DNA of 54,277 bases from Candidatus Nomurabacteria bacterium RIFCSPHIGHO2_01_FULL_41_71 (GTDB lineage: Bacteria; Patescibacteriota; Minisyncoccia; Phycocordibacterales; UBA9973). Shown piece after piece: positions 1-19,217 of this stretch. How positions within the stretch are numbered: the first letter of the stretch is position 1; each line of letters begins with the position of its first letter. The notes under the pieces are model-generated. The model was not told where the DNA came from. It searched no databases and saw only the letters and a program-made list of their open reading frames with translations. Made by a program: the position numbers and the translations under genes. Where the stretch lies: positions 1-54,277 of the forward strand of contig MFTQ01000020.1 in the NCBI GenBank assembly GCA_001785355.1, written 5' to 3'.

Positions 1-2
1 CG

Positions 3-362
3 ACGAGTTACGCTATTCCCGCGGCGCTTGGAAAAACCTGGAACGCGATTTTTCATTCTGTTCCAAAACCAGCGCCGCCGCTCGTCTCCATTTCGCCTGT
101 CGCAACAAATTCGGTTGCGGATGAGATATTTATTGCGTCCGAAAAGAAAAAACCAGTTGTCGTCGCGCCTGCTCGGGTTTCTTTACCCGTCGTTACTTCA
201 AAAATTTCTTTGCCTATTTCCTCAACTCAACAAATGCCGACAAATGTTCTTTTGGCGACGGCGGAAAAAAGCGAAACTCGCATACCCGCGGCAGTCATTG
301 CCGTCGCAGCAATATTTGTCGGTGGTATATTTTTCTTTCGCTTCGCGGGATCAAGCCATTGA
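3..362 (+). CDS. partial CDS (3' end, 5' end off-window): hypothetical Pro/Ala/Val/Ser-rich protein with a C-terminal hydrophobic anchor
   Basis: Frame 3 is open from the window edge to TGA at 360-362 by hand translation; it is absent from the ATG-anchored ORF track. It ends ...IPAAVIAVAAIFVGGIFFFRFAGSSH. Confidence 0.4.
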   Translation, partial: TSYAIPAALGKTWNAIFHSVPKPAPPLVSISPVATNSVADEIFIASEKKKPVVVAPARVSLPVVTSKISLPISSTQQMPTNVLLATAEKSETRIPAAVIAVAAIFVGGIFFFRFAGSSH

Positions 363-386
363 CTTTTACCGGATTATATATATGCT
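359..386 (+). promoter_or_regulatory. sigma70-like promoter TTGACT-N16-TATGCT facing the GC-rich element R1
   Basis: TTGACT at 359-364 and TATGCT at 381-386. The same TTGAC(T/A)-N16/17-TAnnnT pattern recurs at 12082, 22645, 29654(-), 33193 and 50182(-). Confidence 0.4.
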
Positions 387-392
387 TTTTCA

Positions 393-685
393 TTGAAAGG
401 AGGGACTATGCCCTTCTTCTTGTACGTCCGGGCGGGCGGGGGGCAACCCCTGTCCGTCGTTGGAGACTCCGCGGCCGATGCTTTGTCGGCGGCGGAGGGT
501 TTGTTTGGGCGGGGAGGTCGGCTGTTAACAGCCGACCTCCCTCCAGCCACCCTGGCTCAGGTGGCTGACCCCCTCGAGGAGAGGGGGGCAAGAGCCTGGG
601 ATCCGTCCGCGGATCCCAATGGGGACTGAGGTCCCCATTGCGCCGGCGATCCCCTGAAAAGGATCGCCGGCGCATATTAATTTTT
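393..685 (+). ncRNA. R1: GC-rich array of eight near-perfect hairpins; candidate structured RNA of unknown family
   Basis: Hairpins at 433-456 (GCAA loop, two G-U pairs valid only on + strand), 467-497, 512-541 (13 bp), 544-567, 569-587, 598-617 (UCCG loop), 618-639 and 640-673 (13 bp), followed by AUAUUAAUUUUU. About 68% G+C over 421-660 by hand count, in an AT-rich context. Confidence 0.4.
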
Positions 686-714
686 GGCCTAAATTTTGTT
701 TTTTTTGTAAAAAT

Positions 715-732
715 TGCTAGAATGGTTGTATG
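715..732 (+). promoter_or_regulatory. extended -10 (TGcTAGAAT) 6 nt upstream of the ATG; leaderless-type promoter
   Basis: TGc at 715-717, TAGAAT at 718-723, 6-nt spacer, ATG at 730. Confidence 0.4.
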
Positions 733-1155
733 ACATTTCCCGAAGATGTATTGGCGCGGGTGGGGATATTTATTCTGGGAACTTGCGGATTTTTGGTGGC
801 TAGGCATATTTACAATCGCAAAAAGAATGCCCAGCCTTTAATTTGTCCGATCAAGTTTGATTGCAATGCCGTGGTGCACAGCGATTACTCCAAGTTTTTC
901 GGAGTGCCTCTTGAAGTTTTCGGCATGATTTATTACGCGCTTGTCGCTTTAGGTTATTTTTCGCTTATTTTCATTCCGGAAGCCATACCGGGAGCTTTAG
1001 TCAATATCCTGATCTTGGCATCTTCGCTGGCTTTTCTTTTTTCTCTTTATCTCATTTATGTGCAGATCTTTATCCTGAAAAAAGGATGCTCTTGGTGTTT
1101 TATCTCGGCGCTTATTTGTTTTTTTATTTTTTTCCTTACCTTTACGACTGTATAA
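730..1155 (+). CDS. vitamin K epoxide reductase (VKOR) family membrane protein
   Basis: 141-aa multi-pass membrane ORF with paired Cys (CPIKFDC) and a CSWC motif in a late helix, as in VKOR-type thiol oxidoreductases. Confidence 0.6.
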   Translation: MTFPEDVLARVGIFILGTCGFLVARHIYNRKKNAQPLICPIKFDCNAVVHSDYSKFFGVPLEVFGMIYYALVALGYFSLIFIPEAIPGALVNILILASSLAFLFSLYLIYVQIFILKKGCSWCFISALICFFIFFLTFTTV

Positions 1156-1170
1156 AGTCGCAGTATCGGC

Positions 1171-3807
1171 ATGTCCAACAAAAAAAATACAGAAGTCGAA
1201 AACATCTCTCAACCTTGGGCCATGGAAGCGGGGGAAGTGATGGGGGCGCTCGGGGGCGCGGAGCAGGGACTCTCCGATCAAGAGGCGAAAAACCGTCTGA
1301 CAAAATACGGAAACAATACTTTTCATGCGAAAGAAAAAATAAATCCGGTTTTTCTTTTTCTGAAACAATTTTTAAGTCCTCTAATATTCCTACTTATCGG
1401 CGCCGCGGCGCTTACCTTGCTCCTTGGCGAGTTGGCGGATACTCTGGTGATAGTCTTTGCGGTGTTACTCAACGTCTCACTTGGTTTTTATCACGAATAT
1501 CATGCCGAGAATACCCTGGATAAATTAATCACTTACATCAAAGACAGAACCCGGGTTATGAGAGAGGGAATCGAGCAGGAGATAGACTCGGCGCTTCTGG
1601 TGCCCGGAGACACGATCAAGCTCTCTTATGGTTCTCGAGTGCCGGCCGACGCCAGAATTTTGACCGTCAACGATTTTCACGCAGATGAAGCCATTCTGAC
1701 GGGGGAGTCTTTGCCGGTGGCAAAAGTCGTTTCGCCGCAAGCATTTACGACTCTCCCGGCGGAACGCAAAAATATCGCTCACGCCGGCACCTTGGTGGTG
1801 CAGGGATACGCCACCGCGGTGGTTTACGCTACCGGCGGTTTTACGGAAATAGGCAAAATCGCCGGCATTGTTTCCAAGACTTCCAGAATCAAAACCCCTC
1901 TTCAGCGGGGAGTAAGCAGTCTGGCTTGGCTTATTTTTGCCGTTGTGGCAATAATAGTAATCGGCATCTTGATTTTAGGAATTTCTCGCGGAGAAGCCCT
2001 TATCCCGATGCTTTTATTATCTTCCGCGGTGGCGGTCGGCGCGGTTCCGGAGGCTTTGCCTATCGCCCTTACCGTCATCTTAGCTATCGGCGCGGAGCGT
2101 ATTGCCAATAAAAAAGGAATTATCAGAAAACTTACCGCGGCTGAAACTTTGGGTTCCGCCACGCTTATTATGACGGACAAAACAGGAACTCTCACTCTTG
2201 CCGATATGCAACTGGTCGGTGTGCATGAGACGAAGCAAATCACTTCCGGCCGGCAAATTCAAGGGGAAAAAGAATTTTCTTTCGAAGAAAAGAAATTGCT
2301 TGAACTTTCGCTTTTAAATGTCGATGTGTCTATTGAAAATCCGAATGAAGACAAATCCAAATGGGTTTTTCGCGGCAGACCTTTCGAGGTTGATATCGCC
2401 AAGGCCTGTCGGGAGCACAATCTTTCACTCGATATTATTTCTTCTCCGATATCGTATGTGACGTTGCCTTTTAATTCCACCAATAAGTTTTCAGTGGCCG
2501 AGAAGGACGGCAGGTATGTGGTGATGGGGGCGCCCGATATTCTCCTTTCGAGATCGAATGTTTCCCGGGAAGAGTATCTAAAAATCGAATCATTTATCAA
2601 TGAGAAAAGCCGAGACGGAAAAAGACTTATCGGCATCGCCACGGCCTTCAAAGACCATAAAAAGCGTTTTTCCGTAGAAGATGTAACGGGTCTTGATTTC
2701 TTGGGAATGTTTGCTTTTCACGATCCGATTCGCAAGGAAGTGCCGGCCGCTATCAAAAATATAGAATCTCACGGAATAAAAATGGTTTTGGTTACCGGAG
2801 ACTTGGCTGGAACGGCGATAGCAGTGATGAAAGATCTGGATTGGGAAGTAAAAAAAAATGAAATAATAACAGGCGCGGAGCTTGGAGGCATGACGGATGA
2901 ACAGCTACTTTCTGTTATTTCTAAAATAAAAATATTTGCCCGAGTGACGCCGGAAGACAAACTTCGCATCGGCAGGCTTTTCCAGAAGCTCGGAGAAGTG
3001 GTGGCGATGACCGGCGATGGAGTAAATGACGCTCCTTCTCTCAAAGCGATGGATATAGGCATATCGCTCGGATCTGGATCAGACGTGGCAAAGTCGGCCG
3101 CGGATTTGGTTCTCCTGGACGATAATTTCGAGACTATTTCGCTTGCCATAGACGAAGGTCGCAGAATACTTTCCAATATCAAAAAAACCTTTGTATATCT
3201 GATGTCTAATTCTTTCGATGAAGTATTTGTGATAGGGGGAAGCTTGATTGCCGGGATAGCTTTACCGCTTACAGCCCTCCAAATTATCTGGGTTAATCTT
3301 TTTACCGGCAGTCTGCCGGCGCTTGCTTTCGCTTTCGATGAAGATCTGGATAAAGGAGGAAAAAAAGTCGGTGATGATAGAGAATCGAAAGATAAGCATC
3401 TTATTTTTACCACCAGCGTAAAAATATTTATTTTCGGTGTCGGTATTTTGAGTTCACTGATTCTTTTCTTTCTTTATTATTTTCTGATAAAAACGGGCCT
3501 TGAGGTTCACATTGCGCGCAGTATTTTCTTTGTGTGTTTTTCTTCGTATATTTTAATCATTGCGTTTTCTTTCCGCAGTTTACATCGCCCGGTATTTTCT
3601 TATCCGATTTTTTCCAACTGGAAATTAAATGCAAGTATTATCATTGCCATTGTTATACTGGTGGCCACCATGACGGTGCCTTTTATGAGGGATATTTTTG
3701 ATTTGGCGCCAATGCCGCTTGTATGGCTACCCTTTATATTTTTGTGGCTACTTTTAAATATTTTTCTGGTAGAAGGCGCAAAGTATTTAATGCGCTGGGC
3801 GAGATGA
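1171..3807 (+). CDS. P-type cation-transporting ATPase (P2, Ca2+-ATPase-like)
   Basis: 878 aa with the DKTGTLT phosphorylation motif, the TGDGVNDAP hinge, an N-terminal cation-ATPase segment and multiple TM helices. Confidence 0.9.
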   Translation: MSNKKNTEVENISQPWAMEAGEVMGALGGAEQGLSDQEAKNRLTKYGNNTFHAKEKINPVFLFLKQFLSPLIFLLIGAAALTLLLGELADTLVIVFAVLLNVSLGFYHEYHAENTLDKLITYIKDRTRVMREGIEQEIDSALLVPGDTIKLSYGSRVPADARILTVNDFHADEAILTGESLPVAKVVSPQAFTTLPAERKNIAHAGTLVVQGYATAVVYATGGFTEIGKIAGIVSKTSRIKTPLQRGVSSLAWLIFAVVAIIVIGILILGISRGEALIPMLLLSSAVAVGAVPEALPIALTVILAIGAERIANKKGIIRKLTAAETLGSATLIMTDKTGTLTLADMQLVGVHETKQITSGRQIQGEKEFSFEEKKLLELSLLNVDVSIENPNEDKSKWVFRGRPFEVDIAKACREHNLSLDIISSPISYVTLPFNSTNKFSVAEKDGRYVVMGAPDILLSRSNVSREEYLKIESFINEKSRDGKRLIGIATAFKDHKKRFSVEDVTGLDFLGMFAFHDPIRKEVPAAIKNIESHGIKMVLVTGDLAGTAIAVMKDLDWEVKKNEIITGAELGGMTDEQLLSVISKIKIFARVTPEDKLRIGRLFQKLGEVVAMTGDGVNDAPSLKAMDIGISLGSGSDVAKSAADLVLLDDNFETISLAIDEGRRILSNIKKTFVYLMSNSFDEVFVIGGSLIAGIALPLTALQIIWVNLFTGSLPALAFAFDEDLDKGGKKVGDDRESKDKHLIFTTSVKIFIFGVGILSSLILFFLYYFLIKTGLEVHIARSIFFVCFSSYILIIAFSFRSLHRPVFSYPIFSNWKLNASIIIAIVILVATMTVPFMRDIFDLAPMPLVWLPFIFLWLLLNIFLVEGAKYLMRWAR

Positions 3808-3855
3808 AATTAGCCTTTGTTTCTTTTTTTTGCTATAAATAGCGATACACGATAT

Positions 3856-3927
3856 GGAGGTATTGGTGTAGTAGTAGCACAGCAGCTTGTGGAGCTGTTA
3901 GCGAGAGTGCAATCCTCTCATACCTCC
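3856..3927 (+). tRNA. tRNA-His (anticodon GUG) with encoded G-1 opposite C73
   Basis: Hand-folded cloverleaf. G-1 at 3856; acceptor GAGGTAT/ATACCTC; anticodon stem GCAGC/GCTGT with loop TTGTGGA; T arm GAGAG-TGCAATC-CTCTC. CCA is not encoded. Confidence 0.85.
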
Positions 3928-3943
3928 CAAGTGATTTGTTTTT

Positions 3944-3961
3944 TGATATAATACACGTATG
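3944..3961 (+). promoter_or_regulatory. extended -10 (TGaTATAAT) 6 nt upstream of the ATG; leaderless-type promoter
   Basis: TGa at 3944-3946, TATAAT at 3947-3952, spacer acacgt, ATG at 3959. Confidence 0.45.
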
Positions 3962-4489
3962 TCTCAAAATCATGTTTCGTTTTTAAAGGCTTTGTTTGGC
4001 GAGGGCGAAGAGGCTCGAAGGAGAATATTTCGCAGCATCAAAGCAAAAGCCAATGCCAAGAGGACTTTAATGGAAAAAATGGCGGACGCCATGACTTCGC
4101 GTTTCGGGAGCGCTTCCTTTTTGTTAATAAATGCGGCTGCGTTTGTTCTTTGGTTGTTCATCAATACCGGTCAAATAAAAGGAATTCCCATTTTTGATCC
4201 TTATCCTTTTATCTTACTGACGACTTTCGTTTCGCTCGAGGCTATTATTCTCGCCATTTTTGTGCTTATCTCTCAAAATCGCAGTATAAAAATCGATGAT
4301 CTTCGCGAAGAAGTAGATTTGCAAATTAACCTCATTTCCGCAAAAGAAATTACCAAACTTATGAAAATGATAGCCATTCTTTTAGAGAAACAAGGGGTGG
4401 ACCTTTCGCAAGATCCTGAACTGAAAAAAATGTTGAAACCAGTCAGTGAAGAAGAGATAGAAAAAAGATTGGAGAAAGAAATTCTTTAA
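3959..4489 (+). CDS. DUF1003 family membrane protein
   Basis: 176 aa. The two-TM core FGSASFLLINAAAFVLWLFINTG...DPYPFILLTTFVSLEAIILAIFVLISQNR is typical of DUF1003. Confidence 0.6.
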   Translation: MSQNHVSFLKALFGEGEEARRRIFRSIKAKANAKRTLMEKMADAMTSRFGSASFLLINAAAFVLWLFINTGQIKGIPIFDPYPFILLTTFVSLEAIILAIFVLISQNRSIKIDDLREEVDLQINLISAKEITKLMKMIAILLEKQGVDLSQDPELKKMLKPVSEEEIEKRLEKEIL

Positions 4490-4499
4490 ATGAATTTTC

Positions 4500-5051
4500 A
4501 TGTGGAAGAATGAAAACCTAGTAAAAGTGTTGAAAGAAGGCGGAGTGGTCGTGATGCCGACCGATACCTTGTATGGCGTCGTGGGAAGCGCCTTGAATCA
4601 GTTCGTCGTGGAGCGGATTTACAATATCAGAAAGAGAAATCTCGAAAAACCATGCATAATTCTCATCTCTGATATTACCGAACTTGATAAATTTTCGATT
4701 CATCTTTATCCGGGACAGAAGAAAACTCTTTCGGGATACTGGCCAGCGCCAATAAGCGCAGTGATCGACTGCGAAAATGATGATTTCTTTTACCTTCATC
4801 GAGGGACCCGGACGCTTGCTTTCCGGGTGCCGGAAAATGAAGAACTCCGGATTCTGCTTACCGCGACTGGTCCGCTTATCGCGCCTTCAGCCAATTTGGA
4901 GGCAAGGCCTCCAAGTAGAACTATTTCTGAAGCAAAGGAATATTTTGGTGATAAAGTGGATTTATACATTGACGGAGGAGAAATCAGAGGTAAGGCGTCC
5001 AAAGTGATCAAATTGCGCAGAGACGGTTCGATTGAAATCTTACGTGCCTAA
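4500..5051 (+). CDS. tsaC: L-threonylcarbamoyladenylate synthase (TsaC/YrdC domain)
   Basis: 183 aa with the YrdC-domain signature VVMPTDTLYGVVGSA and the conserved PSAN motif. Confidence 0.7.
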   Translation: MWKNENLVKVLKEGGVVVMPTDTLYGVVGSALNQFVVERIYNIRKRNLEKPCIILISDITELDKFSIHLYPGQKKTLSGYWPAPISAVIDCENDDFFYLHRGTRTLAFRVPENEELRILLTATGPLIAPSANLEARPPSRTISEAKEYFGDKVDLYIDGGEIRGKASKVIKLRRDGSIEILRA

Positions 5052-5078
5052 AATTCATACTTGGTGTAGTATCTTCTT

Positions 5079-6092
5079 ATGAAGATTTTGCTGGATTACG
5101 ATCTCACAAATATGAACACTTTCCGGGTACCGGCCCGAGCGAAGTTTTTTACCGAAATCCAAAGCGAGCGGGATTTGTCGGAGCTTTTCGTGGCCCCGGA
5201 ATTTAAAAATAACGAAAAACTTTTTCTAGGCGGGGGGAGCAATGTTCTTTTTACCAAGAATTTTGATGGAATCGTGGTTTTAAATAAATTAAAAGGGATA
5301 GAAATTTTAGACGAGGATACAGAGAGTGTAGAAATAAGAGCGATGAGCGGGGAAATTTGGCATGACTTGGTGACTTTTTCTGTGGAACGCGGATATTGGG
5401 GTATTGAGAATTTATCCCTTATTCCGGGAACAGTCGGGGCGGCGCCGATGCAGAACATCGGCGCCTATGGGGCGGAACTTCAAAATGTTTTAGAAAGTGT
5501 CGAAGCGCTTGAAGTCGAAACGGGAGCCAGAAAAATTTTTAGAAAAGAAGAATGTGATTTTGGCTATCGCAACAGCGTTTTTAAAAATGAAATTAAAGGA
5601 AAGTATTTTATTTCGGCGGCGATTTTACGGCTTAATAAGATTTCAAAACCAAAAATAACATATCGTCATCTCAGAGAATATTTTGATCAAAATAAAACAG
5701 AAGCAAAAAGTTCCAAAGACATAAGTAAGGCGGTGATCGATATTCGCAAAAGCAAGTTGCCCGATCCGGCGGTAATTCCAAATGCCGGGAGCTTTTTTAA
5801 AAATGTTTTTGTCAATGAAAAAGAAATAGAAAAAATTCTTGCAAAATACCCGGACCTGCCGTATTTTGAAGAAAGTGGAACAAAAAAAATTCCAGCGGGA
5901 TGGCTTATTGAGAAGGCTGGATGGAAAGGAAAAAGAACGGGCAATGCGGGGGTGCATGAAAAACACGCGCTGGTTTTGGTCAACTATGGCGGAGCGACCG
6001 GGGAAGAAATAAAAAATCTAGCTGAGCAAATAACAGCCTCGGTCTATGAAAAATTCGGCTTAAAACTTATTCCGGAAGTGAACTTGATTTAA
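5079..6092 (+). CDS. murB: UDP-N-acetylenolpyruvoylglucosamine reductase
   Basis: 337 aa. FAD-binding N-terminal region (LGGGSNVLF) and a MurB C-terminal domain (AGSFFKN, PAGWLIE). Confidence 0.85.
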   Translation: MKILLDYDLTNMNTFRVPARAKFFTEIQSERDLSELFVAPEFKNNEKLFLGGGSNVLFTKNFDGIVVLNKLKGIEILDEDTESVEIRAMSGEIWHDLVTFSVERGYWGIENLSLIPGTVGAAPMQNIGAYGAELQNVLESVEALEVETGARKIFRKEECDFGYRNSVFKNEIKGKYFISAAILRLNKISKPKITYRHLREYFDQNKTEAKSSKDISKAVIDIRKSKLPDPAVIPNAGSFFKNVFVNEKEIEKILAKYPDLPYFEESGTKKIPAGWLIEKAGWKGKRTGNAGVHEKHALVLVNYGGATGEEIKNLAEQITASVYEKFGLKLIPEVNLI

Positions 6093-6119
6093 GAACTTTT
6101 TAGTATATAATTTATTTGC

Positions 6120-6941
6120 ATGGATAATTTAATTAAAGAAAAATCTAATTTAATGAAAGCAGGGCTGGTATTTGTGGTTATTTTATCAGCCTACTTTACC
6201 GTTAAAGCTCTGGCTGAAATAAAATCCTATGGCAGGACGAGCAGCTTGGAGATTAGCACTATTACTCTCTCTGGCCACGGCGAAGTGATAGCTGTGCCGG
6301 ACATTGCCACTATTTCTTTTACCATTTCCAAAGTGGCGAAGACGGCAAAAGAGGCGCAAGAGGCCGTAGCGCAGGTTGAGCAAAAAGCTTTGGAATTTTT
6401 GCGCGGGAATGGCGTGGAGGACAAGGATATAAAAACCGAAAATGCTTCGGTATACCCGAAATACGAATGGAAGCGCACTCCTTGCCCTTTATCTTCTTCC
6501 GGAACAGAGATGATGATCTTTCCTCCTTGTATTTCGGACGGTAAAAATGTCTTGTTGGGATATGAGGCGAACGAAAGTATCACCATGAAAGTTCGCAAAG
6601 TGGATGATGCCGGAGAAATTATGCAAGGACTTGGCGCGGTCGGAGTTTCTAATCTGAATGGTCCAAACTTTGCCATAGACAATGAAGACGGATTGAAAAT
6701 GGAGGCCAGAAAAAAAGCGATTGAAGACGCGCGCGGTAAAGCTAAAATTTTAGCGAAAGATTTAGGAGTGCGTCTGGGTAAAATTGTCAGTTTCAGTGAA
6801 AATGGTTATGATCCATACCCTGTAATGTATGGCAAAGCGATGATGGCCGAAGACGCCGCTTCGCTTCCTCCGGCGCCAGAGCTTCCGAAAGGAGAAAATA
6901 CCATAAGCTCGGATGTCAGCATAACTTACGAGATACGATAA
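6120..6941 (+). CDS. SIMPL/DUF541 domain protein with N-terminal membrane anchor
   Basis: 273 aa with an N-terminal TM helix followed by a SIMPL-like region (ITLSGHGEVIAVPDIATISFTI...). Confidence 0.55.
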   Translation: MDNLIKEKSNLMKAGLVFVVILSAYFTVKALAEIKSYGRTSSLEISTITLSGHGEVIAVPDIATISFTISKVAKTAKEAQEAVAQVEQKALEFLRGNGVEDKDIKTENASVYPKYEWKRTPCPLSSSGTEMMIFPPCISDGKNVLLGYEANESITMKVRKVDDAGEIMQGLGAVGVSNLNGPNFAIDNEDGLKMEARKKAIEDARGKAKILAKDLGVRLGKIVSFSENGYDPYPVMYGKAMMAEDAASLPPAPELPKGENTISSDVSITYEIR

Positions 6942-6983
6942 GAAATTACAAAAACAAAATTCATTAGTTAAAATTATAAACAT

Positions 6984-7406
6984 ATGGCAATAGGAGATGA
7001 ACCAAAACCAAATATACCGCCAGTGGAAGTAAAAGAAAAAAAAGTTGTCAAGATTTTATATGCTGAGGATGATAAAATATGGAGAAGAACTTTACAGGAT
7101 CTGCTTGAATACAGAGGTTGTGTGGTTGAAGCCGTAGAAAACGGAAAAATCCTTCTCGAGAAACTTGCAACTGGTGCGTACGATTTGGTTTTGACGGACA
7201 ATGATATGCCGGTTTTAACCGGGATCCAAGCGCTTAAAAAAATTCGTGAGATGGAGGGCTTGAGAGACTTGCCCGTTATTGTTTTTTCTGGGAGAAGTTC
7301 AGATCTTGAGAAGTATGTTACAGGGTTAGGCGGTACATGCTTGAATAAAGCATCAACAGAAGATCTTTTTCCTGCAATCGAAAGGGCGTTAAAAAGTGAT
7401 AAATAG
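6984..7406 (+). CDS. single-domain response regulator (CheY-like receiver)
   Basis: 140 aa. Acidic pocket EDD, phospho-acceptor context LVLTDNDMP, and a conserved K in LNKA. Confidence 0.75.
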   Translation: MAIGDEPKPNIPPVEVKEKKVVKILYAEDDKIWRRTLQDLLEYRGCVVEAVENGKILLEKLATGAYDLVLTDNDMPVLTGIQALKKIREMEGLRDLPVIVFSGRSSDLEKYVTGLGGTCLNKASTEDLFPAIERALKSDK

Positions 7407-7492
7407 AAATTCAGCCTCTTCCTGTTGTTTTTCAACCACTGTAATATAACAGATATTGTGGTGGGGAATATCAACCCTTTTTTATTTCATTT

Positions 7493-7530
7493 TGTCTACC
7501 GAATTTTACATATGTCTTTTTCGGTAGACA
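7493..7530. repeat. 38-nt palindromic element, copy 1 (TGTCTACCGAA...ACATATGT...TTCGGTAGACA)
   Basis: 11-bp perfect arms at 7493-7503 and 7520-7530. It shares arms, length and a CATATG centre with the perfect palindrome at 27685-27722. Confidence 0.8.
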
Positions 7531-7574
7531 AGACTAAAATTTGACTATTTTTAGCAAAAGGAGTACCTTTAAGG

Positions 7575-7596
7575 AAGCCCTGCGAGGGGCTTTTTT
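7575..7596 (+). terminator. intrinsic terminator candidate
   Basis: AAGCCC-TGCGAG-GGGCTT stem-loop followed by a T run (7592-7596). Confidence 0.5.
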
Positions 7597-7622
7597 ATAG
7601 AAAATTTAATTAAAAATCAGCT

Positions 7623-7808
7623 ATGTCTAAAATCACCGAATATTTCAAAGAAACCAGAGGGGAGCTTAAGCATGTAGTTTGGCCTACTCGCAAGCAGACT
7701 TTCTATTACACTCTGATCGTGATAGCGCTTTCGGTAGTACTGGCTTACTATCTGGGTGTATTTGATTTTATTTTTGGCAGGATCTTGGGAAGAGCGCTCG
7801 TGCTTTAA
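7623..7808 (+). CDS. secE: preprotein translocase subunit SecE
   Basis: 61 aa, single TM, conserved ELKKVVWP-like motif (ELKHVVWPTRKQ); located upstream of nusG. Confidence 0.8.
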   Translation: MSKITEYFKETRGELKHVVWPTRKQTFYYTLIVIALSVVLAYYLGVFDFIFGRILGRALVL

Positions 7809-7821
7809 TTCGCCGTATTTT

Positions 7822-8367
7822 ATGTCTAAACAGGAAACACAGGGAACAAGGAATTGGTATGCTATTCATACTTACGCTGGGTACGAAAATGTGGTATTGC
7901 GCAATTTAAAGCAACGCATCGATTCGCTTGGCATGCACGATAAAATTTTTAACGTCATTGTGCCGGTGGAAAAGAAAATAAAAATCAAAAGCGGGAAAAG
8001 AGTGGAGATGGAAGAGAAAATTTATCCCGGGTATGTTTTAGTGGACATGATCGTGACGGATGATTCGTGGTATGTGGTTCGAAATACTCCGCGAGTGACG
8101 GGGTTTGTCGGTGCCGGGGTAAATCCCGTGCCACTTAGAAAAGATGAAGTGGATTATCTATTCAGCAAGATGGACGCCGGTACACAGAAATACAATATCA
8201 CTCTCTCGACGGGAGAGGTGGTCAGGATTGTAGACGGGCCGTTTAAGGATTTGGAGGGTAAAGTAAACACCGTGGATAATGAGCGCGGAAAGGTAAAAGT
8301 GCTGGTATCTATGTTCGGCCGGGAGACGCCGGTAGAGTTGGATTTCTTGCAAGTTAAGCAGATTTGA
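7822..8367 (+). CDS. nusG: transcription termination/antitermination factor NusG
   Basis: NGN domain (WYAIHTYAGYENVV) and KOW motif (GEVVRIVDGPFKDLEGKV). Start moved to the ATG at 7822, after the secE stop. Confidence 0.9.
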   Translation: MSKQETQGTRNWYAIHTYAGYENVVLRNLKQRIDSLGMHDKIFNVIVPVEKKIKIKSGKRVEMEEKIYPGYVLVDMIVTDDSWYVVRNTPRVTGFVGAGVNPVPLRKDEVDYLFSKMDAGTQKYNITLSTGEVVRIVDGPFKDLEGKVNTVDNERGKVKVLVSMFGRETPVELDFLQVKQI

Positions 8368-8386
8368 GATAATGTTATAAAACTAT

Positions 8387-8812
8387 ATGGCGAAGAAAAT
8401 AATTAAAAATGTAAAACTAAGAGCTGTGGGAGGCAAAGCCACTCCGGCGCCACCGCTTGGCCCCACCTTGGGTCAGGCTGGAATAAATATCGGTGATTTT
8501 ATCACCAAATTTAACATGGCTACTCAAAAAATGGCGGGGGAAACTCTCACCGTACATCTTGCTGTGTATGAAGACCGGACTTATGATTTTGTGGTAAAAA
8601 CTCCGCCAGTTTCCGGATTGATACTCAAAGCGGCCGGAATACCCAAGGGTTCGGGTAGGCCCAATACTTCCAAAATCGGGAAAATTACCCGAAAACAGGC
8701 AGAAGATATTGCAGAGAAGAAAATGAAAGATCTGAACGCCAAGGACATTTCCGGCGCTATTCGCATCGTAGCCGGCTCTGCTCGCTCTATGGGCGTGGAA
8801 GTGCAAAACTAA
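8387..8812 (+). CDS. rplK: 50S ribosomal protein L11
   Basis: 141 aa with clear L11 sequence (PPLGPTLGQAGINIGDF). Confidence 0.95.
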   Translation: MAKKIIKNVKLRAVGGKATPAPPLGPTLGQAGINIGDFITKFNMATQKMAGETLTVHLAVYEDRTYDFVVKTPPVSGLILKAAGIPKGSGRPNTSKIGKITRKQAEDIAEKKMKDLNAKDISGAIRIVAGSARSMGVEVQN

Positions 8813-8850
8813 ATTTGAGAAAAAATTTTCCCTATTTGACAAAGGTTGTT

Positions 8851-9828
8851 ATGAAACTCGCGCCGAAGATTGGCGCGAGGGTGGTGGTGGAGCCGGAGTG
8901 GGGTATTGTCGCGCAGATAATTTATAAAAATGGCGTAGTGCGGTCCTTGCGTATGTACTCGCTTGATTTGAATCATATCGCTTCTTCGGATATTGCAAAA
9001 GATAAAGATTATGCCAAATTTTTTATGCGAGAACGAGGATATCCTGTGGCTCCGGGTAAAACAATTTTCACGAATAATTGGGCGAAAATTGTCAAAAGCA
9101 ATCGAACCATTTCTTATGGCGTAAAATATGCAAAGAAGCTTGGTTATCCGGTTTTAATAAAACCCAACAGTAAAAGCCAGGGAATAGATGTTTTCCTCGC
9201 TTGGAATAAAAAGGAATTATATGCGGCCCTGGCTAAAATATTTCAGGGAGACAAAGTCGCAATAATTGAAAAATATTTGCCCGGGCGAGATTATAGAATA
9301 GTGGTACTGGACGACAAAATTATTTCCGCTTATGAGCGGATGCCATTGTCGGTGAAAGGCGATGGCAAAAATACCATATTAAAATTGCTTGAAGGAAAGA
9401 AGAAACTTTTCGATAAAGAGGAAAGAGATACAAATATAAATTTAAAAGATCCGAGGATAAAAAATAAGTTAAAGAGAGAGGGGTATAGCCTCAAGAGTGT
9501 TTTAGAAAAAGGTAAAAAAGTTTATCTCCTCCACAATGCCAATCTCTCCGCCGGCGGAGATTCCAAAGACGTCACGACAAAAATTCATCCTGGTTTTAAA
9601 AAAATTGCCATGGATATTACTAAAAAAATGGGATTACGGATCTGCGGGGTGGATATTATGGTAACGCACGGTGACATTACAAAAAATCCGAAAAATTGCA
9701 GTTATTACATAATTGAAATAAATTCTACTCCCGGGCTTGATCATTATGTGACTGTCGGCAGAAAACAGAAAAAGATCGTGGAGGATATGTATCTCGAAAT
9801 TCTCAAGGCACTTGGAAAGAAAGATTAA
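8851..9828 (+). CDS. ATP-grasp domain ligase (RimK/cyanophycin-synthetase-like)
   Basis: ATP-grasp motifs (VLIKPNSKSQGIDV, YRIVVLDDKII, YIIEINSTPGL). ATG at 8851 is preceded by AAAGG; the track start at 8815 is a TTG. Confidence 0.65.
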   Translation: MKLAPKIGARVVVEPEWGIVAQIIYKNGVVRSLRMYSLDLNHIASSDIAKDKDYAKFFMRERGYPVAPGKTIFTNNWAKIVKSNRTISYGVKYAKKLGYPVLIKPNSKSQGIDVFLAWNKKELYAALAKIFQGDKVAIIEKYLPGRDYRIVVLDDKIISAYERMPLSVKGDGKNTILKLLEGKKKLFDKEERDTNINLKDPRIKNKLKREGYSLKSVLEKGKKVYLLHNANLSAGGDSKDVTTKIHPGFKKIAMDITKKMGLRICGVDIMVTHGDITKNPKNCSYYIIEINSTPGLDHYVTVGRKQKKIVEDMYLEILKALGKKD

Positions 9829-9847
9829 AATTAGTATAATTTAAGCC

Positions 9848-10177
9848 ATGATAGATCTCAAAAAATTACAAAAAGAAGTAATGCAAAATAAGTTAGAGAA
9901 GGGGTTTAACACGACTGATATTGCGCTGGAGTTTTGTCGGGCACACGAAGAGCTTTCCGAAGCTTTTTCCAAATACAGTAAACGGCAACCAGGAGTAGCC
10001 GAAGAATTTGCCGATGTAGTGATATTCGTGCTCGGCATGTGCGAAACGCTCGGCTTTGATCTTGAGAAGGAACTCCTTCGAAAGATAGAAAAAAATAAAA
10101 AACGAAAATACAAAAAAGAAAAATCTCCGGACGGTAGCGACATATTCATCCGCATCAAAACCCCCGAGGATCCTTAA
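9848..10177 (+). CDS. MazG-like nucleotide pyrophosphohydrolase
   Basis: 109 aa all-alpha NTP-PPase motifs (EELSEA...EEFADVVIFVLGMCE). Confidence 0.65.
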   Translation: MIDLKKLQKEVMQNKLEKGFNTTDIALEFCRAHEELSEAFSKYSKRQPGVAEEFADVVIFVLGMCETLGFDLEKELLRKIEKNKKRKYKKEKSPDGSDIFIRIKTPEDP

Positions 10178-10185
10178 AAACACTT

Positions 10186-10219
10186 GTTTACTATTCTGAC
10201 GGCCGTCAGGATAGTAAAC
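10186..10219. terminator. bidirectional intrinsic terminator between convergent MazG-like gene and folA
   Basis: 17-bp stem GTTTACTATTCTGACGG/CCGTCAGGATAGTAAAC with one T-G pair; T runs on both strands. Confidence 0.6.
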
Positions 10220-10717
10220 TTATTTTTTTTCGTAGATTGAAAAAGTGTACGGAAGGGGATTTTTTTTGTCTGCTTGGTGTTCTTCGCGCGAGATTTCATT
10301 CCAGACGATTGGGATTATTTCCGGTAAAAAAGTGTCTGCTTTGTTGTCTTCCGCATCTATGTGGGTGATATAAAGCTTGTCGGCGATCGGCATAGTCTGT
10401 TTATAAATTTCCGCCCCGCCGATGATGAAAATTTCCTCATCTTGGGCGAGGGGGACCCTCGCTAATTTTAGTGCTTCTTCCAGTGAGTGTGTCACATCTA
10501 TGCCATAGCGTAGATAGTTTTTGTCTCTAGTGATAACTATATTTTTTCTATCTGGCAGTGGTTTGTTCAAAGATTCAAAAGTTTTTCGTCCCATAATCAC
10601 CGTGTGTCCGGATGTCTTGTTGCGAAAATATTTCTGGTCTGCCGGCAGACGCCAAACCAGGTCGTTGCCTTTACCCAACTCGTTATTTTTGCCGATAGCT
10701 GCGATTAAGGAAATCAT
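10220..10717 (-). CDS. folA: dihydrofolate reductase
   Basis: 165 aa with a canonical DHFR N-terminus (ISLIAAIGKNNELGKGNDLVWRLPADQKYF) and GGAEIY. Confidence 0.85.
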   Translation of the reverse strand: MISLIAAIGKNNELGKGNDLVWRLPADQKYFRNKTSGHTVIMGRKTFESLNKPLPDRKNIVITRDKNYLRYGIDVTHSLEEALKLARVPLAQDEEIFIIGGAEIYKQTMPIADKLYITHIDAEDNKADTFLPEIIPIVWNEISREEHQADKKNPLPYTFSIYEKK

Positions 10718-11547
10718 TTAATTATGTTGAGTCCCTCAATCGGACCGTCTGGTTGATAATGGGGAGTGAAAGTTTGATAAATTTCTTCTACCAGCTGCTC
10801 ATCCTTCCGCTCTGCCCGATCAAATACGTTTTGCGGGAGGACAGGGAAAATATTTTTGTGATTGTTTGTCCTTTTTATCAATTCCCGCGCACCATCATAG
10901 TGAATATCATAGATATGAGCGTTAGAAATCGTATGAGTATACATTCCGGGCTTCACTCCGAGCTTCTGCGCCAAAATGCACATCATAAGCGCAAAGCCAA
11001 AAGTATCAAACGGGCATCCCAGCATCATGTCGTTGGACCTTATGATGTTGTGGAGATGCAGGCGTCCACCGATAATATTTATGGTAAAGGCGAAAGGGCA
11101 AGGCACGTTCTTTTTTGCAGTGCCGCCCGGACCGTCATCATTCGGGTCCCAAGTTATAACTACCGCGTGCCGAGAGCTTGGGTCTTCACTCAATAGGTTT
11201 ATAATATTGTCTATCTGGTTTCTTTTGAAATGATGTTTCCAGCGATAGCCGTAAGCGGAGGTGATGGTGCCGTCCGGTTCAATAAATTCATCCCACATTT
11301 TCGTGTATTTTCTCAAAAAATCAGTGTTTTTATCTCCGCTTAAAAACCACACTTGTTCCGCGATGGGTGATTTAATTGGGTTTTTTCTTAAAGTCAGAAC
11401 GGGGAAGCCGTCTTTTTCAATATCAATCTGGAAGGTGATTCCCGGCAGAGCTCTGGTCTTGTGGCCGGTTCTTACGTTTAGTTCTTCTACGCCTTCTTCC
11501 ATTATTTTCTTTAGGATGCCTTGGTAGATTGTATCAAAAGATGTCAT
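10714..11547 (-). CDS. thyA: thymidylate synthase (ThyA family)
   Basis: 277 aa. ThyA fold with catalytic Cys context (VPCPFAF) and RSNDMMLGCPFD; overlaps folA by 4 nt. Confidence 0.8.
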   Translation of the reverse strand: MTSFDTIYQGILKKIMEEGVEELNVRTGHKTRALPGITFQIDIEKDGFPVLTLRKNPIKSPIAEQVWFLSGDKNTDFLRKYTKMWDEFIEPDGTITSAYGYRWKHHFKRNQIDNIINLLSEDPSSRHAVVITWDPNDDGPGGTAKKNVPCPFAFTINIIGGRLHLHNIIRSNDMMLGCPFDTFGFALMMCILAQKLGVKPGMYTHTISNAHIYDIHYDGARELIKRTNNHKNIFPVLPQNVFDRAERKDEQLVEEIYQTFTPHYQPDGPIEGLNIIK

Positions 11548-11570
11548 GTAGTAGAGTATACAATATAATT

Positions 11571-12065
11571 ATGAAAACAAAAGATATCAGCCATACCCCC
11601 CCTTATGTCCCTATAGGACGAAATATTTTATATGTACCGCCAACTAATAAGTATATTGTAGAAGCCAAAGAGCATGCAAAAAAATATTCGTTAGACAAAG
11701 AAATGCCCAATACTAGCGTGATTGTTAAAGACGGAAAAATAATTGGACGAGGAGCCAACGGCAGTACTTACCACGACACTCATGAATGTGAACGCGTAAA
11801 ACGAAATATTCCAACTGGGCAAGGCTACGAACTCTGTGAAGGCTGTCATCCTAAAAATCATGGCGAGTCCCGCGCAATTAAAAATGCAAAAGATGCGGGA
11901 CATAACCCGAAGGGGGCAGACCTGTATATGTGGGGCCACTGGTGGTGCTGTAAACCTTGTTGGGAGGCAATGATTTCTGCCGGCATAAAAAATGTTTATC
12001 TATTAGAAAACAGCGAAATACTTTTTAATAAAAAAGACCCCGATAATATAATCGGAAATAATTGA
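11571..12065 (+). CDS. dCMP/cytidine deaminase family zinc enzyme
   Basis: HGE...CKPC zinc motifs. Start moved to the ATG at 11571, because the track start overlaps the thyA start region. Confidence 0.7.
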   Translation: MKTKDISHTPPYVPIGRNILYVPPTNKYIVEAKEHAKKYSLDKEMPNTSVIVKDGKIIGRGANGSTYHDTHECERVKRNIPTGQGYELCEGCHPKNHGESRAIKNAKDAGHNPKGADLYMWGHWWCCKPCWEAMISAGIKNVYLLENSEILFNKKDPDNIIGNN

Positions 12066-12081
12066 AAAAACTCTGGAGACA

Positions 12082-12110
12082 TTGACAAGTTAATCTATAG
12101 ATGCTAATGT
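12082..12110 (+). promoter_or_regulatory. sigma70-like promoter TTGACA-N17-TAATGT
   Basis: TTGACA at 12082-12087 and TAATGT at 12105-12110, upstream of the helicase gene. Confidence 0.5.
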
Positions 12111-12153
12111 TCAATCATCATTCTCACTAATTACATATTGGGAGTGACCCATT

Positions 12154-13392
12154 ATGTACACACGTTATTCGGGGGATCCGAACAAATTCGGACGACCTAA
12201 GTTTGTCCACAAAGCAAAGCCCCATTTTGGTGGCAGAAAGCCTACATTTAATAGAAACAGCAAAAGATCCCGAGGCGAGCGGATTGATTTTTCTCGTTTC
12301 ATAAAGAAAGGAACTTATACTGAAGAAGCGCCTTATGTTTCCAAACACACTTTCGCTAATTTTTCTTTTAATCCGCAACTACATAAAAATATTACAACGG
12401 CAGGATTTATTCATCCTCGACCCATTCAGGACCAAGCGATACCTTCTGTGATGGAAGGTAAGGATGTTTTCGGCATGGCCAATACGGGCACGGGGAAAAC
12501 TGCGGCTTTTCTTTTGCCTTTGATAGAAAAAATAGTTAGAACAAGAGGCAAAAATATGAGGGAAAAAGTTTTAATAATGGCGCCAACTCGCGAGCTGGCC
12601 CTGCAGATAGAGAGCGATTTTAAAAAACTTGCTTTTGGATTCGGAATGTTTTCAGTGGCTTGTGTCGGAGGACTTCCAATAATGAAGCAAATTAGGGAAA
12701 TAAAAATGGGAGTTTCGTTCATCATCGGTACCCCTGGGAGACTGCGCGATTTGATTGATAAAAAAGTTTTGGATCTCTCTACATGTCATTCGGTAGTTCT
12801 AGACGAAGCTGACAGAATGCTTGATATGGGATTCAGAGACGATATGGTGTACATAATCGGCAAAACTTCTAAAGAACGCCAGACACTTTTCTTCTCGGCG
12901 ACACTTTCGCCGGAGATTAAAAAATTAACAACTCAATTTTTGAAAGACCCCATTTTTATTTCCGTAATTACGGGCGTTACCCTAAAAAATATCGACCAAG
13001 ATGTTATTCGCATTCGAAGCAAAGAAGAAAAATTATCTAAATTGCATGAGGTTTTAAAAAAAGACGGTTCAGATAAAGTTTTGATTTTCCGTGAGATGAA
13101 GCATAGCGTGGACGGCCTCACCAAAGAGCTTTCTCAATTTGGGTTCAAGGTCGGCGCAATTCATGGAGATAAGCGAAGTCGAGAACGTATTCGCATTCTT
13201 GATTCTTTCAAACAAAACAAGATAAATATTCTGATAGCGACCGATGTGGCAGCCAGAGGCCTCGACATTCCGGACGTTACCCATGTCATCAATTACGATG
13301 TCCCCCAAACCTACGACACCTATATTCACCGCATCGGCCGCACCGGCCGAAGCGGCAAAAAGGGAACAGCCCTCACCTTTGTGCCTGCTTAG
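12154..13392 (+). CDS. DEAD-box ATP-dependent RNA helicase with basic N-terminal extension
   Basis: Q motif, Walker A (ANTGTGKTAAF), DEAD (VLDEADRML), SAT and HRIGRTGR motifs. Confidence 0.9.
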   Translation: MYTRYSGDPNKFGRPKFVHKAKPHFGGRKPTFNRNSKRSRGERIDFSRFIKKGTYTEEAPYVSKHTFANFSFNPQLHKNITTAGFIHPRPIQDQAIPSVMEGKDVFGMANTGTGKTAAFLLPLIEKIVRTRGKNMREKVLIMAPTRELALQIESDFKKLAFGFGMFSVACVGGLPIMKQIREIKMGVSFIIGTPGRLRDLIDKKVLDLSTCHSVVLDEADRMLDMGFRDDMVYIIGKTSKERQTLFFSATLSPEIKKLTTQFLKDPIFISVITGVTLKNIDQDVIRIRSKEEKLSKLHEVLKKDGSDKVLIFREMKHSVDGLTKELSQFGFKVGAIHGDKRSRERIRILDSFKQNKINILIATDVAARGLDIPDVTHVINYDVPQTYDTYIHRIGRTGRSGKKGTALTFVPA

Positions 13393-13427
13393 ATCAATCC
13401 AGCTTTGAAGAGCGTGGCATAGGCACC
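13389..13427 (-). pseudogene. relic 3' end of rpmB (L28), diverged duplicate of 14361-14399
   Basis: Minus-strand reading GGT GCC TAT GCC ACG CTC TTC AAA GCT GGA TTG ATC TAA (GAYATLFKAGLI*) compared with functional GGC GCC TAC GCC ACA CTC CTC AAA GCT GAA TTG ATA (GAYATLLKAELI). Differences are mostly at third positions. Confidence 0.6.
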
Positions 13428-13461
13428 GCACTCGTCTTTCTTCTTATTAGATATCACATTG

Positions 13462-13487
13462 CACATTTAAACGGCCGTCTAAATGTG
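13462..13487. repeat. palindrome CACATTTA-AACGGCCGTC-TAAATGTG overlapping the promoter of the PaaX-like gene A (operator candidate)
   Basis: 8-bp arms. The same 10-nt centre recurs at 13999-14026 with a compensatory arm change. Confidence 0.75.
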
Positions 13488-13500
13488 GTATACTATAAAG

Positions 13501-13989
13501 ATGCATAAACATTGGACTGATGAGGCCTCTTTTAGCGATTTTATCATTAGCCATTTATTATCCTGTGGTTCACTTAGAATTCAAAAGCAGGTACTTTATG
13601 AATTGATATGCAAAAAAAGGGAGCTGAATAAACAACTATTCAACAATAATCTACATCGGCTTCGAAAGAAAGGCATATTAAATTATTCTTCTAAAAAAGA
13701 TATTGTCATCAATAAAAGCGCCCTAAGAGCCCATACGCTTTTTTCAAAAATAAGAACAAAGCCGACAGGGGACACTAAAGTCATGGTTTTGTTTGATATT
13801 CCAGAAAAGAAAAGAAAAACCAGAAACTGGCTTCGTTCACAGTTAAAATTATGGGATTTTGAAATGTTACAACAAAGTGTTTGGCTTGGAAAAGGTCCTT
13901 TACTAAAAGAATTCACCGTTCGCCTTCGTTTACTTGACGTTCATAAAGGCGTAAAAATATTTAAAATTCAAAATGTCCGAAAGATGTAA
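13501..13989 (+). CDS. PaaX-like/Cas2-fold winged-helix regulator, paralog A
   Basis: C-terminal VMVLFDIPEKKRKTRNWLRSQLKLWDFEMLQQSVWL matches the PaaX/Cas2-like ferredoxin-fold pattern. Start set to the ATG at 13501, 6 nt after TGgTATACT. Confidence 0.55.
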   Translation: MHKHWTDEASFSDFIISHLLSCGSLRIQKQVLYELICKKRELNKQLFNNNLHRLRKKGILNYSSKKDIVINKSALRAHTLFSKIRTKPTGDTKVMVLFDIPEKKRKTRNWLRSQLKLWDFEMLQQSVWLGKGPLLKEFTVRLRLLDVHKGVKIFKIQNVRKM

Positions 13990-13998
13990 AAATACATA

Positions 13999-14026
13999 CC
14001 ACTTTTAAACGGCCGTCTAAAAGTGG
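13999..14026. repeat. palindrome CCACTTTTA-AACGGCCGTC-TAAAAGTGG downstream of gene A
   Basis: 9-bp arms with a centre identical to 13462-13487. The A-to-T change in the left arm is matched by T-to-A in the right arm. Confidence 0.75.
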
Positions 14027-14104
14027 TGTGGTTGTTATTTTAACAAAATATAACACTATTCAATTAAGTAAACTTAACCCTCATCAGGATAGTCTCTAAG
14101 AAAA

Positions 14105-14350
14105 CTATTTTTTAAAAAATAGAAAATCTATTAAAGTTTGCCTCGCGGAGGTAGTGCTCACGTCTGTAGTATCTAAAGAAGTTTCCGGTTCAATATCATA
14201 TCTACTTTTTATGTAAAACTTAAACCACTCTCTAAATTCATCATCGGTAATCTCTTTTGGATTTAGGGCATTTAAATCTACATATTCGTTTCCCCGTTTT
14301 ATACGAATCGGTAGTTCTCTGTTTGGTTTTCTAAAATCTTCCGGTTTCAT
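14105..14350 (-). CDS. hypothetical protein (81 aa)
   Basis: ORF lies 4 nt downstream of rpmB on the same strand; no motif recognised. Confidence 0.45.
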   Translation of the reverse strand: MKPEDFRKPNRELPIRIKRGNEYVDLNALNPKEITDDEFREWFKFYIKSRYDIEPETSLDTTDVSTTSARQTLIDFLFFKK

Positions 14351-14354
14351 ATCT

Positions 14355-14603: not shown

Positions 14604-14631
14604 AATTTTTTTATGTTATCATAGAAACTAT

Positions 14632-15252: not shown

Positions 15253-15316
15253 AAAGTTTTATAGTACATTGTCCCCATAGTCCTATTGGGGCTATTTTGT
15301 TTCTTTGGCAAAATTT

Positions 15317-15730: not shown

Positions 15731-15754
15731 TTTTTAATTTCTGATTTCTAAAAA

Positions 15755-16225: not shown

Positions 16226-16242
16226 TTAACTAGCAAGTAACT

Positions 16243-19185: not shown

Positions 19186-19217
19186 TTATTAGAGACTTGA
19201 TATTATATTGGTTGGAA

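Follow-up and report, generated by a model that had tools for sequence, protein, structure and literature searches.

A strain-variable, GC-rich hairpin array between two operons of a groundwater Candidatus Nomurabacteria genome

The locus and its fold

Contig MFTQ01000020.1 of Candidatus Nomurabacteria bacterium RIFCSPHIGHO2_01_FULL_41_71 (assembly GCA_001785355.1), an uncultured groundwater organism of the Rifle aquifer, carries between two of its operons a GC-rich stretch of about 290 nt (positions 393-685), referred to below as R1; the window is the whole analyzed stretch of this contig, 54,277 nt. R1 begins 31 nt past the stop codon of a gene for a prenyltransferase/squalene-cyclase-like protein of 624 amino acids (aa), the last gene of an operon that also encodes a cobalamin adenosyltransferase and a DUF4430 protein; the version of this B12-linked operon found in relatives also starts with a class II ribonucleotide reductase. 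On the other side of R1 lies the VKOR gene, followed by the gene for a P-type cation ATPase (Table 1). The identical VKOR protein is encoded on contigs of further assemblies, GCA_001786055.1 and GCA_001785595.1 among them.

An earlier note, made from the sequence alone, had described R1 as a promoter-driven array of eight near-perfect hairpins and a candidate novel structured RNA. Its hand count of about 68% G+C over positions 421-660 agrees with the computed value of 0.683; the content is 0.642 over the whole of R1 and 0.423 over the window, in which only R1 and one more segment, R2, reach at least 0.65 in 240-nt windows. On the + strand, 387-690 has a folding energy of -197.2 kcal/mol, whereas dinucleotide shuffles average -134.2 ± 5.6 (z = -11.3; none of 100 shuffles did as well); the - strand reaches -171.5 kcal/mol (z = -8.3), so that the folding check proposed in the note points to exceptional structure. 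With the pair span limited to at most 45 nt, the local fold consists of ten consecutive helices with 98 pairs (Table 1), and 99.2% of the cells are paired across four strain haplotypes. Thus the array stands, with the count raised from eight to ten by a hairpin at the Shine-Dalgarno-like (SD-like) run and by a 2-bp mini-stem; the three directly abutting hairpins at the 3' side, the GNRA (GCAA) loop and the UNCG-type (UCCG) loop were all found as described. R1 is confirmed as a real, exceptionally structured, GC-rich unit.

Table 1. Coordinates of R1, its flanking features and other palindromic or structured elements of the window
Feature	Positions	Strand	Description
Promoter-like site TTGACT-N16-TATGCT	359-386	+	9/12 match; overlaps the TGA stop (359-361) of the 624-aa gene
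73-codon frame (74 in variant strains)	408-629	+	publicly annotated as a hypothetical protein
Helix 1	397-404/411-418	+	8 pairs, invariant in four haplotypes; SD-like run AAGGAGGG paired with CCCUUCUU, AUG 408 in the loop
Helix 2	427-442/447-464	+	16 pairs, GCAA (GNRA) loop 443-446, four G-U pairs
Helix 3	467-479/485-497	+	12 pairs, 1x1 G-G internal loop, 5-nt apical loop
Helix 4	511-524/529-542	+	14 pairs; main polymorphic spot (525, 527, 528, 530, 540)
Helix 5	544-551/560-567	+	8 pairs, 8-nt loop; variant A568>G gives a ninth pair
Helix 6	569-575/581-587	+	7 pairs, GAGGA loop
Helix 7	588-589/594-595	+	2-bp mini-stem; loop holds the complex change and 3-nt insertion of variant strains
Helix 8	597-605/610-618	+	9 pairs, UCCG loop; variant G605>A opens the loop-closing pair only
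Helix 9	619-626/631-638	+	8 pairs, UGAG loop with the TGA stop of the 73-codon frame
Helix 10 and U-tract	639-652/661-674, to 685	+	14 pairs (11 G-C), 8-nt loop, then TATTAATTTTT
Extended -10 box TGCTAGAAT	715-732	+	six bases, then the VKOR ATG
VKOR gene	730-1155		
P-type cation ATPase gene	1171-3807		
Palindromes with TGTCTACCGAA / TTCGGTAGACA	7485-7538, 27685-27722		the two share these motifs
AT-rich palindromes with core ACGGCCGT	10186-10219, 13462-13487, 13995-14030		at gene ends
Island in ribosomal-protein operon	26981-29619		between rplB and rpsS; holds R2
R2, second hairpin array	27780-28060		G+C about 0.66; near-perfect hairpins, sequence unrelated to R1, same build
RAYT-like Y1 transposase frame	45049-45723		PF01797 (Y1_Tnp), 25.7 bits (cut-off 23)
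Perfect palindromes flanking the transposase	44996-45032, 45699-45745		
Palindrome inside the transposase gene	45213-45245		near-perfect, 94% complementary
Fourth copy of the palindrome	25049-25092		perfect; between ribosomal-protein genes
tmRNA	50231-50634	-	107 bits

Several observations bear on the strand. Positions 401-520 fold at -64.4 on the + strand and at -39.2 on the - strand, and helix 2 is stable on the + strand only, with its G-U pairs in the interior of the stem. The argument drawn in the earlier note from the G-U pairs of hairpin 433-456 is therefore upheld, as this helix collapses on the - strand. No A-C mismatches are interior to the + strand stems of R1. Helix 10 with the following TATTAATTTT is the top-listed terminator-like site of positions 1-20000, and the combination of a GC-rich stem-loop with a U-rich tract that marks an intrinsic (Rho-independent) terminator is found at this last helix only. 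Taken together, the interior G-U pairs, the strain changes that give G-U pairs (see below) and the orientation of the terminator support the + strand for R1.

The upstream end is less distinctive. The promoter-like hexamers reported in the note are present on the + strand, but the case for a promoter is weak: 9/12 matches were found twice in 1.5 kb, with 1.4 expected in shuffles, and the site lacks the TG extension of the genome's usual -10 type. Two tRNA genes and the leaderless genes are preceded by an extended -10 box, TGnTAnAAT, with no clear -35. The upstream 624-aa gene has no terminator of its own besides that of R1. Since this gene lacks a terminator and the promoter-like site is unlike those of the genome, R1 may simply be the 3' end of the upstream gene.

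Strain variation and occurrence in relatives

Six contigs from near-identical strains were aligned to the window across about 4155 nt. R1, taken as 304 nt, has 10-11 differing columns, and the flanks, about 3850 nt, have 0-2 (3.3-3.6% versus about 0.03%); when clusters are counted as single events, there are 6 in R1 and 1 in the flanks (Fisher p = 1e-6). The variation is confined to about 180 nt of R1, and the mutation density at R1 and R2 is 20-100 times that of the flanks. With about a thousand sites in the flanks that are effectively neutral, a 100-fold difference is more than relaxed constraint could produce by itself. Independent assemblies, built with different assemblers, show the same alleles again, which argues against random error, a systematic artefact at GC-rich inverted repeats being possible. 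All 9 of the 9 strain contigs covering the site carry R1. Independent metagenome assemblies (L010, L042-L045) break inside or beside R1 or R2, which is consistent with strain heterogeneity or with a loss of coverage at GC-rich hairpins.

The structure is kept under this variation. Folding energies of the four haplotypes range from -192.9 to -197.2 kcal/mol, and their helices are the same. Nine random substitutions, matched to the observed mix of transitions and transversions, cost +17.6 ± 6.6 kcal/mol, whereas the observed cost of +3.0 to +4.3 was reached in only 1.5-1.9% of the simulations. Paired bases hold 3 of the 10 variable columns, although 67% of all bases are paired (binomial p = 0.019). 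Four changes touch predicted pairs, and three of these yield G-U on the + strand: A530>G (U-A to U-G) and C540>T (G-C to G-U, the variant allele keeping all 14 pairs) in helix 4, and C425>T (G-C to G-U) in the long-range pair 425-511, which occurs in the full minimum-free-energy fold only. The fourth is G605>A in helix 8 (Table 1). Apical loops differ between strains (UUAA versus GUGC). In helix 4 of the window strain, positions 512-541 form a perfect 30-nt palindrome, from which the other allele departs by four changes close together at the apex. The interior G-U pairs and the changes giving G-U pairs support a constraint at the RNA level on the + strand.

No known RNA family accounts for R1. 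A search of the whole window with Rfam 15 at gathering scores returned the tmRNA and two tRNAs only and nothing on R1, in agreement with the earlier failure to match R1 to tmRNA, RNase P, SRP or 6S RNA by their motifs. At a permissive threshold (E <= 10), the best matches in 300-760 were sX13 at 27.8 bits (gathering 50) and BjrC80 at 24.8 bits (gathering 80); both alignments are of a generic kind, matching GC-rich hairpins and a terminator. Literature searches turned up nothing relevant on structured or hairpin RNAs in this bacterial radiation. As a separate observation, the tmRNA of the window carries, compared with the Rfam consensus, a long insertion of about 36 nt in the region that follows the resume codon.

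Among relatives, R1 was sought by synteny. A scan of 185,579 species genomes based on the ATPase gave 29 loci with 30-74% identity, 15 of them with VKOR near the ATPase; in all 15, a GC-rich structured element before VKOR was not found, a -10 box and unrelated upstream genes being there instead. An nhmmer search with R1 returned nothing in the 29 loci. Homologs of the upstream operon in four relatives are followed by spacers of just 27-48 nt, and in one Nomurabacteria genome the ATPase comes directly after this operon. As the spacer is otherwise short, about 300 nt would have been inserted or gained de novo with R1. The closest relatives in the whole protein collection are 69% (VKOR) and 61% (upstream gene) identical, and R1 is restricted to one species-level lineage of Nomurabacteria. 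A conserved RNA family would be marked by occurrence in several species and by compensatory changes, and R1 displays neither. Thus the description of R1 as a candidate novel structured RNA is right as to a structure without a family, but not as to a conserved class, given one species, no compensation and an empty syntenic site.

Other searches yielded candidates that were rejected. In phage and plasmid collections, blastn found 30-nt chance matches only. The 49 viral contigs with the helix 9 stem AATGGGGAC-N4-GTCCCCATT carry it as a generic terminator that stands alone between unrelated flanks. In a scan over about 250 kb of related loci, no array as strong as R1 was found, with weak remaining matches in two loci (L020, L034). 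A GC-rich island at a comparable place in a related Nomurabacteria genome (L011, 66-476) proved to be an ordinary open reading frame (ORF) with no excess of structure (z = -1.1). This ORF, of 136 aa and G+C about 0.6-0.69, has an SD-like GGAGG and no Pfam match; it is followed by a GC-rich hairpin at 481-530 and lies upstream of msrB-VKOR-ATPase. The strongest match of the array scan (L027, 9296-9433) is a 45-codon ORF for a hydrophobic peptide (MNIMAILWGGGLAGILIAWALPKQYGPLVGLVVFTIAALIAAMVK) with largely palindromic segments and then a terminator; it could encode a small membrane peptide or toxin. Finally, a concentration of restriction palindromes was considered for R1 and dropped: hexamer palindromes number 10 versus 5.6 ± 2.5, and GC hexamer palindromes occur across the window.

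Competing interpretations

One alternative is that R1 is an independent trans-acting small RNA (sRNA) of a new class, running from the promoter-like site to position 685 and presenting its loops to a specific partner. We consider this unlikely. A defined terminator and a + strand polarity would suit such an RNA, as would the promoter-like site, were this not an ordinary match of an unusual type for the genome. The build of about 290 nt with many hairpins is akin to that of protein-sponging sRNAs, but no loop motif is common to the ten hairpins or to R1 and R2, and the apical loops that would meet the partner vary freely between strains. The best sub-threshold Rfam match is a three-hairpin sRNA, sX13, whereas a homolog of R1 was found neither in related genomes nor among the metagenome matches listed. 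The retention of structure under sequence change also fits an sRNA, yet the stems are perfect and bulge-free, unlike those of most old functional RNAs.

The second array, R2, and the other palindromes of the window bear on an alternative at the DNA level. R2 lies between convergent transcription units, is preceded by an AAGGAG...ATG motif and ends in a bidirectional terminator; it folds alike on both strands (z = -7.8 and -7.7). Strains differ at 3 sites in its 281 nt (27833, 27952 and 27968) versus 3 in 7240 nt (p = 9e-4), and with the change G27952>T, a quasi-palindrome becomes a perfect one of 22 nt. The surrounding island contains a 98-aa ORF, the HicA toxin (27282-27512; PF07927), a 53-aa ORF, R2 and a convergent gene for a 506-aa protein, residues 401-458 of which match the NusG N-terminal domain (PF02357, 24.3 bits, cut-off 22.2). 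Strong termination in both directions would be fitting at such a site. The possibility of R1 and R2 being two copies of the same element was discarded, as they share no sequence and their common k-mers are not above the shuffle expectation; just four isolated 11-mers of R1 recur in the 54 kb, and none forms a repeated unit.

The window also has a transposase like those associated with repetitive extragenic palindromic (REP) sequences (RAYT-like; Table 1). The palindromes at and inside its gene and the distant fourth copy share the core GCCAGTGCCTnAGGCACTGGC, while their outer arms are unique yet perfectly complementary, and the 3' palindrome takes in the last codons of the gene. The transposase together with its palindromes looks like a REPtron. 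Two further sets of palindromes were observed. Those with the core ACGGCCGT are probably bidirectional terminators, and the pair with TGTCTACCGAA / TTCGGTAGACA, one of which lies a short way upstream of R2 and is perfect over 38 nt, might serve a DNA-binding protein as operator.

R1 might accordingly be a selfish or neutral cluster of DNA palindromes without an RNA function, shaped by template switching or by a palindrome-handling enzyme; we give this a small but real chance. R1 is GC-rich in an AT-rich genome and hypervariable between strains, and the GC clusters of mitochondrial genomes likewise show rapid substitution, merging and shuffling (PMC4478555); but no strain lacks R1, and neither a target-site duplication nor a terminal inverted repeat can be seen. 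The genome does have REP palindromes and a Y1/RAYT-like transposase, but the core GCCAGTGCCT / GCCAGTGCCTnAGGCACTGGC of these palindromes is not present in R1, where the hairpins are all different and belong to no repeat family across R1, R2 and the 54 kb. R1 and R2 both lie at synteny breaks, several assemblies break at one or the other, and a quasi-palindrome of one allele is perfect in the other. The two strands fold equally well over the 3' half of R1 and over the whole of R2. However, interior G-U pairs occur on the + stems only and the changes within stems give G-U on the + strand, neither of which is predicted by a process at the DNA level.

A reading of R1 as the messenger for a small orphan protein of 73-74 aa that evolves fast, or as a dual-function RNA, with translation starting from AAAGGAGG-N4-ATG, is rather improbable, and the 73-codon frame is probably not a genuine gene. 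The extent of the frame given in the earlier note, from the ATG at 408, was confirmed, and gene callers do annotate it, as a hypothetical protein in a Candidatus Nomurabacteria bin. It is intact in all four haplotypes, with a sole indel of 3 nt that is in-frame, and its G+C by codon position (0.74/0.58/0.72) has the coding-like dip at position 2; but at 68% G+C, four further frames are also open across most of R1. A codon-adaptation index trained on eleven real genes of the window is 0.605 for the frame, no better than the 0.61-0.63 of the other two + frames and below every real gene (0.69-0.74). The strain changes in the frame, 2 synonymous versus 5 non-synonymous (T>P, D>G, P>S, L>V and R>KM), are few and of low divergence; their ratio is about neutral, without a sign of purifying selection. 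Moreover, about two-thirds of the coding bases would lie in stems of up to 14 G-C-rich pairs.

The product has no relative outside its own species. A word-indexed search of 5.8 billion proteins returned nothing beyond the 90% cluster of the product itself (74 aa, 92% identity, 12 contigs), an exhaustive phmmer search over 1.84 billion representatives gave this cluster alone, and neither Pfam nor NCBIfam had a match. A peptide-pattern scan of metagenomes had a sole match among those listed (L040), a chance VVGDSAAD inside an unrelated 404-aa gene. AlphaFold without an alignment predicts, with moderate confidence, a compact beta-beta-alpha-beta-alpha-beta model (pLDDT 68, pTM 0.52), which would suit a small protein, but a Foldseek search of the PDB with this model gave nothing significant, the best hit (E = 0.17) being a de novo designed protein. 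Homologs, a family or fold match and codon adaptation are thus all wanting, and the conservation check suggested in the note speaks against the frame, with no relative in two protein searches and a codon index at the out-of-frame level.

The strong SD-like run, which had been offered as a case for a small protein, fails as such. The run AAAGGAGG is present, at 396-403, one base off the 397-404 given before, but SD-like matches of even 4 bases are found at just 7 of the 58 gene starts of the window. Many genes begin 6-9 nt after a TGnTAnAAT box and are therefore leaderless, and operon-internal starts are A/T-rich upstream. As the genes are almost all SD-less or leaderless, AAAGGAGG is foreign to the way in which this genome starts translation; it is also sequestered, being paired with CCCUUCUU in helix 1 in every haplotype.

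Two readings have very little in their favour. The mgtA-type ATPases have Mg2+-sensing leaders, and R1 lies upstream of a cation ATPase with its terminator 45 nt before the VKOR ATG; nevertheless, the reading of R1 as a riboswitch or attenuator leader of the VKOR-ATPase operon is nearly refuted, since this operon is leaderless with a separate promoter (Table 1), its TATAnT-N6-9-ATG layout also precedes VKOR in the 15 related genomes that keep VKOR beside the ATPase without R1, no Rfam riboswitch matches even at E = 10, and all ten helices are local, with no fold apparent that would compete with the 14-bp terminator stem. It is equally hard to credit a diversity-generating retroelement or other targeted diversification as the source of the variation: such retroelements are common in this bacterial radiation and the changes do cluster within about 180 nt of otherwise identical strains, but the 54-kb window has no second (template) copy of R1, the changes include an indel and affect more than one type of base, and no larger target gene has R1 as its 3' end.

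Proposed role and comparison with known systems

With somewhat less than even confidence, we favor R1 as a lineage-specific, non-coding array of hairpins on the + strand that serves in termination, insulation or 3' protection, or as a young sRNA. The insert of about 290 nt would act at the RNA level as ten stable stem-loops. Transcripts from the upstream operon, and possibly short ones from the weak promoter at 359-386, would end at the terminator 639-685; the GC-rich stack would block read-through into the leaderless VKOR-ATPase operon and may shield the 3' end from exonucleases, as the arrays of REP sequences and bacterial interspersed mosaic elements (BIMEs) do in enterobacteria. With the pairing kept and the sequence not, the hairpins would be young. 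They probably arise, and are perfected, by quasi-palindrome template switching, which would make R1 a mutation hotspot, while selection at the RNA level would tolerate only changes that keep the + strand pairs.

A number of points weigh against this interpretation. Other operons of the genome end in a single hairpin, so that 290 nt of hairpins far exceeds the need, and most co-directional operon boundaries in the window have no comparable array. Among the four near-identical haplotypes, no pair is changed on both sides, and the case for structure is built on folding energies and a few one-sided changes; the excess of variable columns in unpaired bases goes to p = 0.17 once clustered changes are collapsed to events. 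The frame that is intact in every haplotype and the compact model of its product point toward a protein, and hairpins could also be preserved by a process acting on DNA alone, with no function as RNA.

If the array does act as proposed, then a minimal, AT-rich, SD-less genome builds a boundary between transcription units de novo from GC-rich palindromes, and R1 would reveal how quickly such elements turn over and would provide a natural case of structure kept without sequence. The most unusual point of R1 is the roughly 100-fold local excess of strain differences; if real at the level of reads, this lineage of uncultured episymbionts would have there either an extreme hotspot of mutation driven by palindromes or a target of diversifying selection. 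A bolder proposal, which we think quite unlikely, makes R1 and R2 the first examples of a class of GC-rich RNAs with many hairpins in the Candidate Phyla Radiation, hypervariable between strains, with selected stems and diversifying loops; such a class could be an RNA-level system of phage/host interaction, or an equivalent of mitochondrial GC clusters co-opted as RNA. Pending expression data or closer relatives, the wider significance is limited. There is also a practical warning, as such arrays are labelled hypothetical proteins by gene callers and are places where assemblies of metagenomes break or disagree.

Various aspects of R1 find parallels in known systems. Quasi-palindromes are hotspots of template switching that mutate toward perfection (PMC7202029). 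The changes in R1 are similarly clustered at hairpin apices, with one allele perfect and the other imperfect. However, this is a mutational mechanism and not a functional element, and template switching explains how R1 changes, but neither the presence of a 290-nt array nor the bias of G-U pairs to one strand. The sRNAs that derive from 3' untranslated regions or lie near terminators, including sX13 (RF02232), resemble R1 in a promoter-like site that overlaps the end of the upstream gene and in several stem-loops followed by an intrinsic terminator, and sX13 gave the best sub-threshold alignment. In contrast to them, R1 is conserved in no other species and has far longer and more perfect stems; its score is little more than half of the sX13 gathering value, and the C-rich loop motifs of sX13 are not in R1.

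The GC clusters of AT-rich yeast mitochondrial genomes undergo rapid substitution, merging and shuffling (PMC4478555). Like these fungal clusters, R1 consists of short GC-rich palindromes in AT-rich intergenic DNA; fast remodelling between close strains and merging into larger structured blocks are further likenesses. The fungal clusters differ in forming multi-copy families with presence/absence polymorphism and target-site features, none of which was found for R1, whereas R1 has the + strand polarity of its G-U pairs and ends in a terminator.

Finally, the REP and BIME arrays of enterobacteria are, like R1, tandem stable hairpins in intergenic DNA at the 3' end of a transcription unit, with the same plausible roles in termination and protection of the upstream mRNA, and the genome of R1 does have a RAYT-like Y1 transposase with REP palindromes of its own. 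A BIME, in contrast, is one unit repeated at many loci, while the ten hairpins of R1 are all different, lack the REP core of the genome and recur nowhere else within the 54 kb (nhmmer, self matches only); R1 is also strongly GC-rich against an AT-rich background. Overall, R1 is not shown to be a conserved new class of RNA, and it resembles the known intergenic hairpin arrays, with variations.

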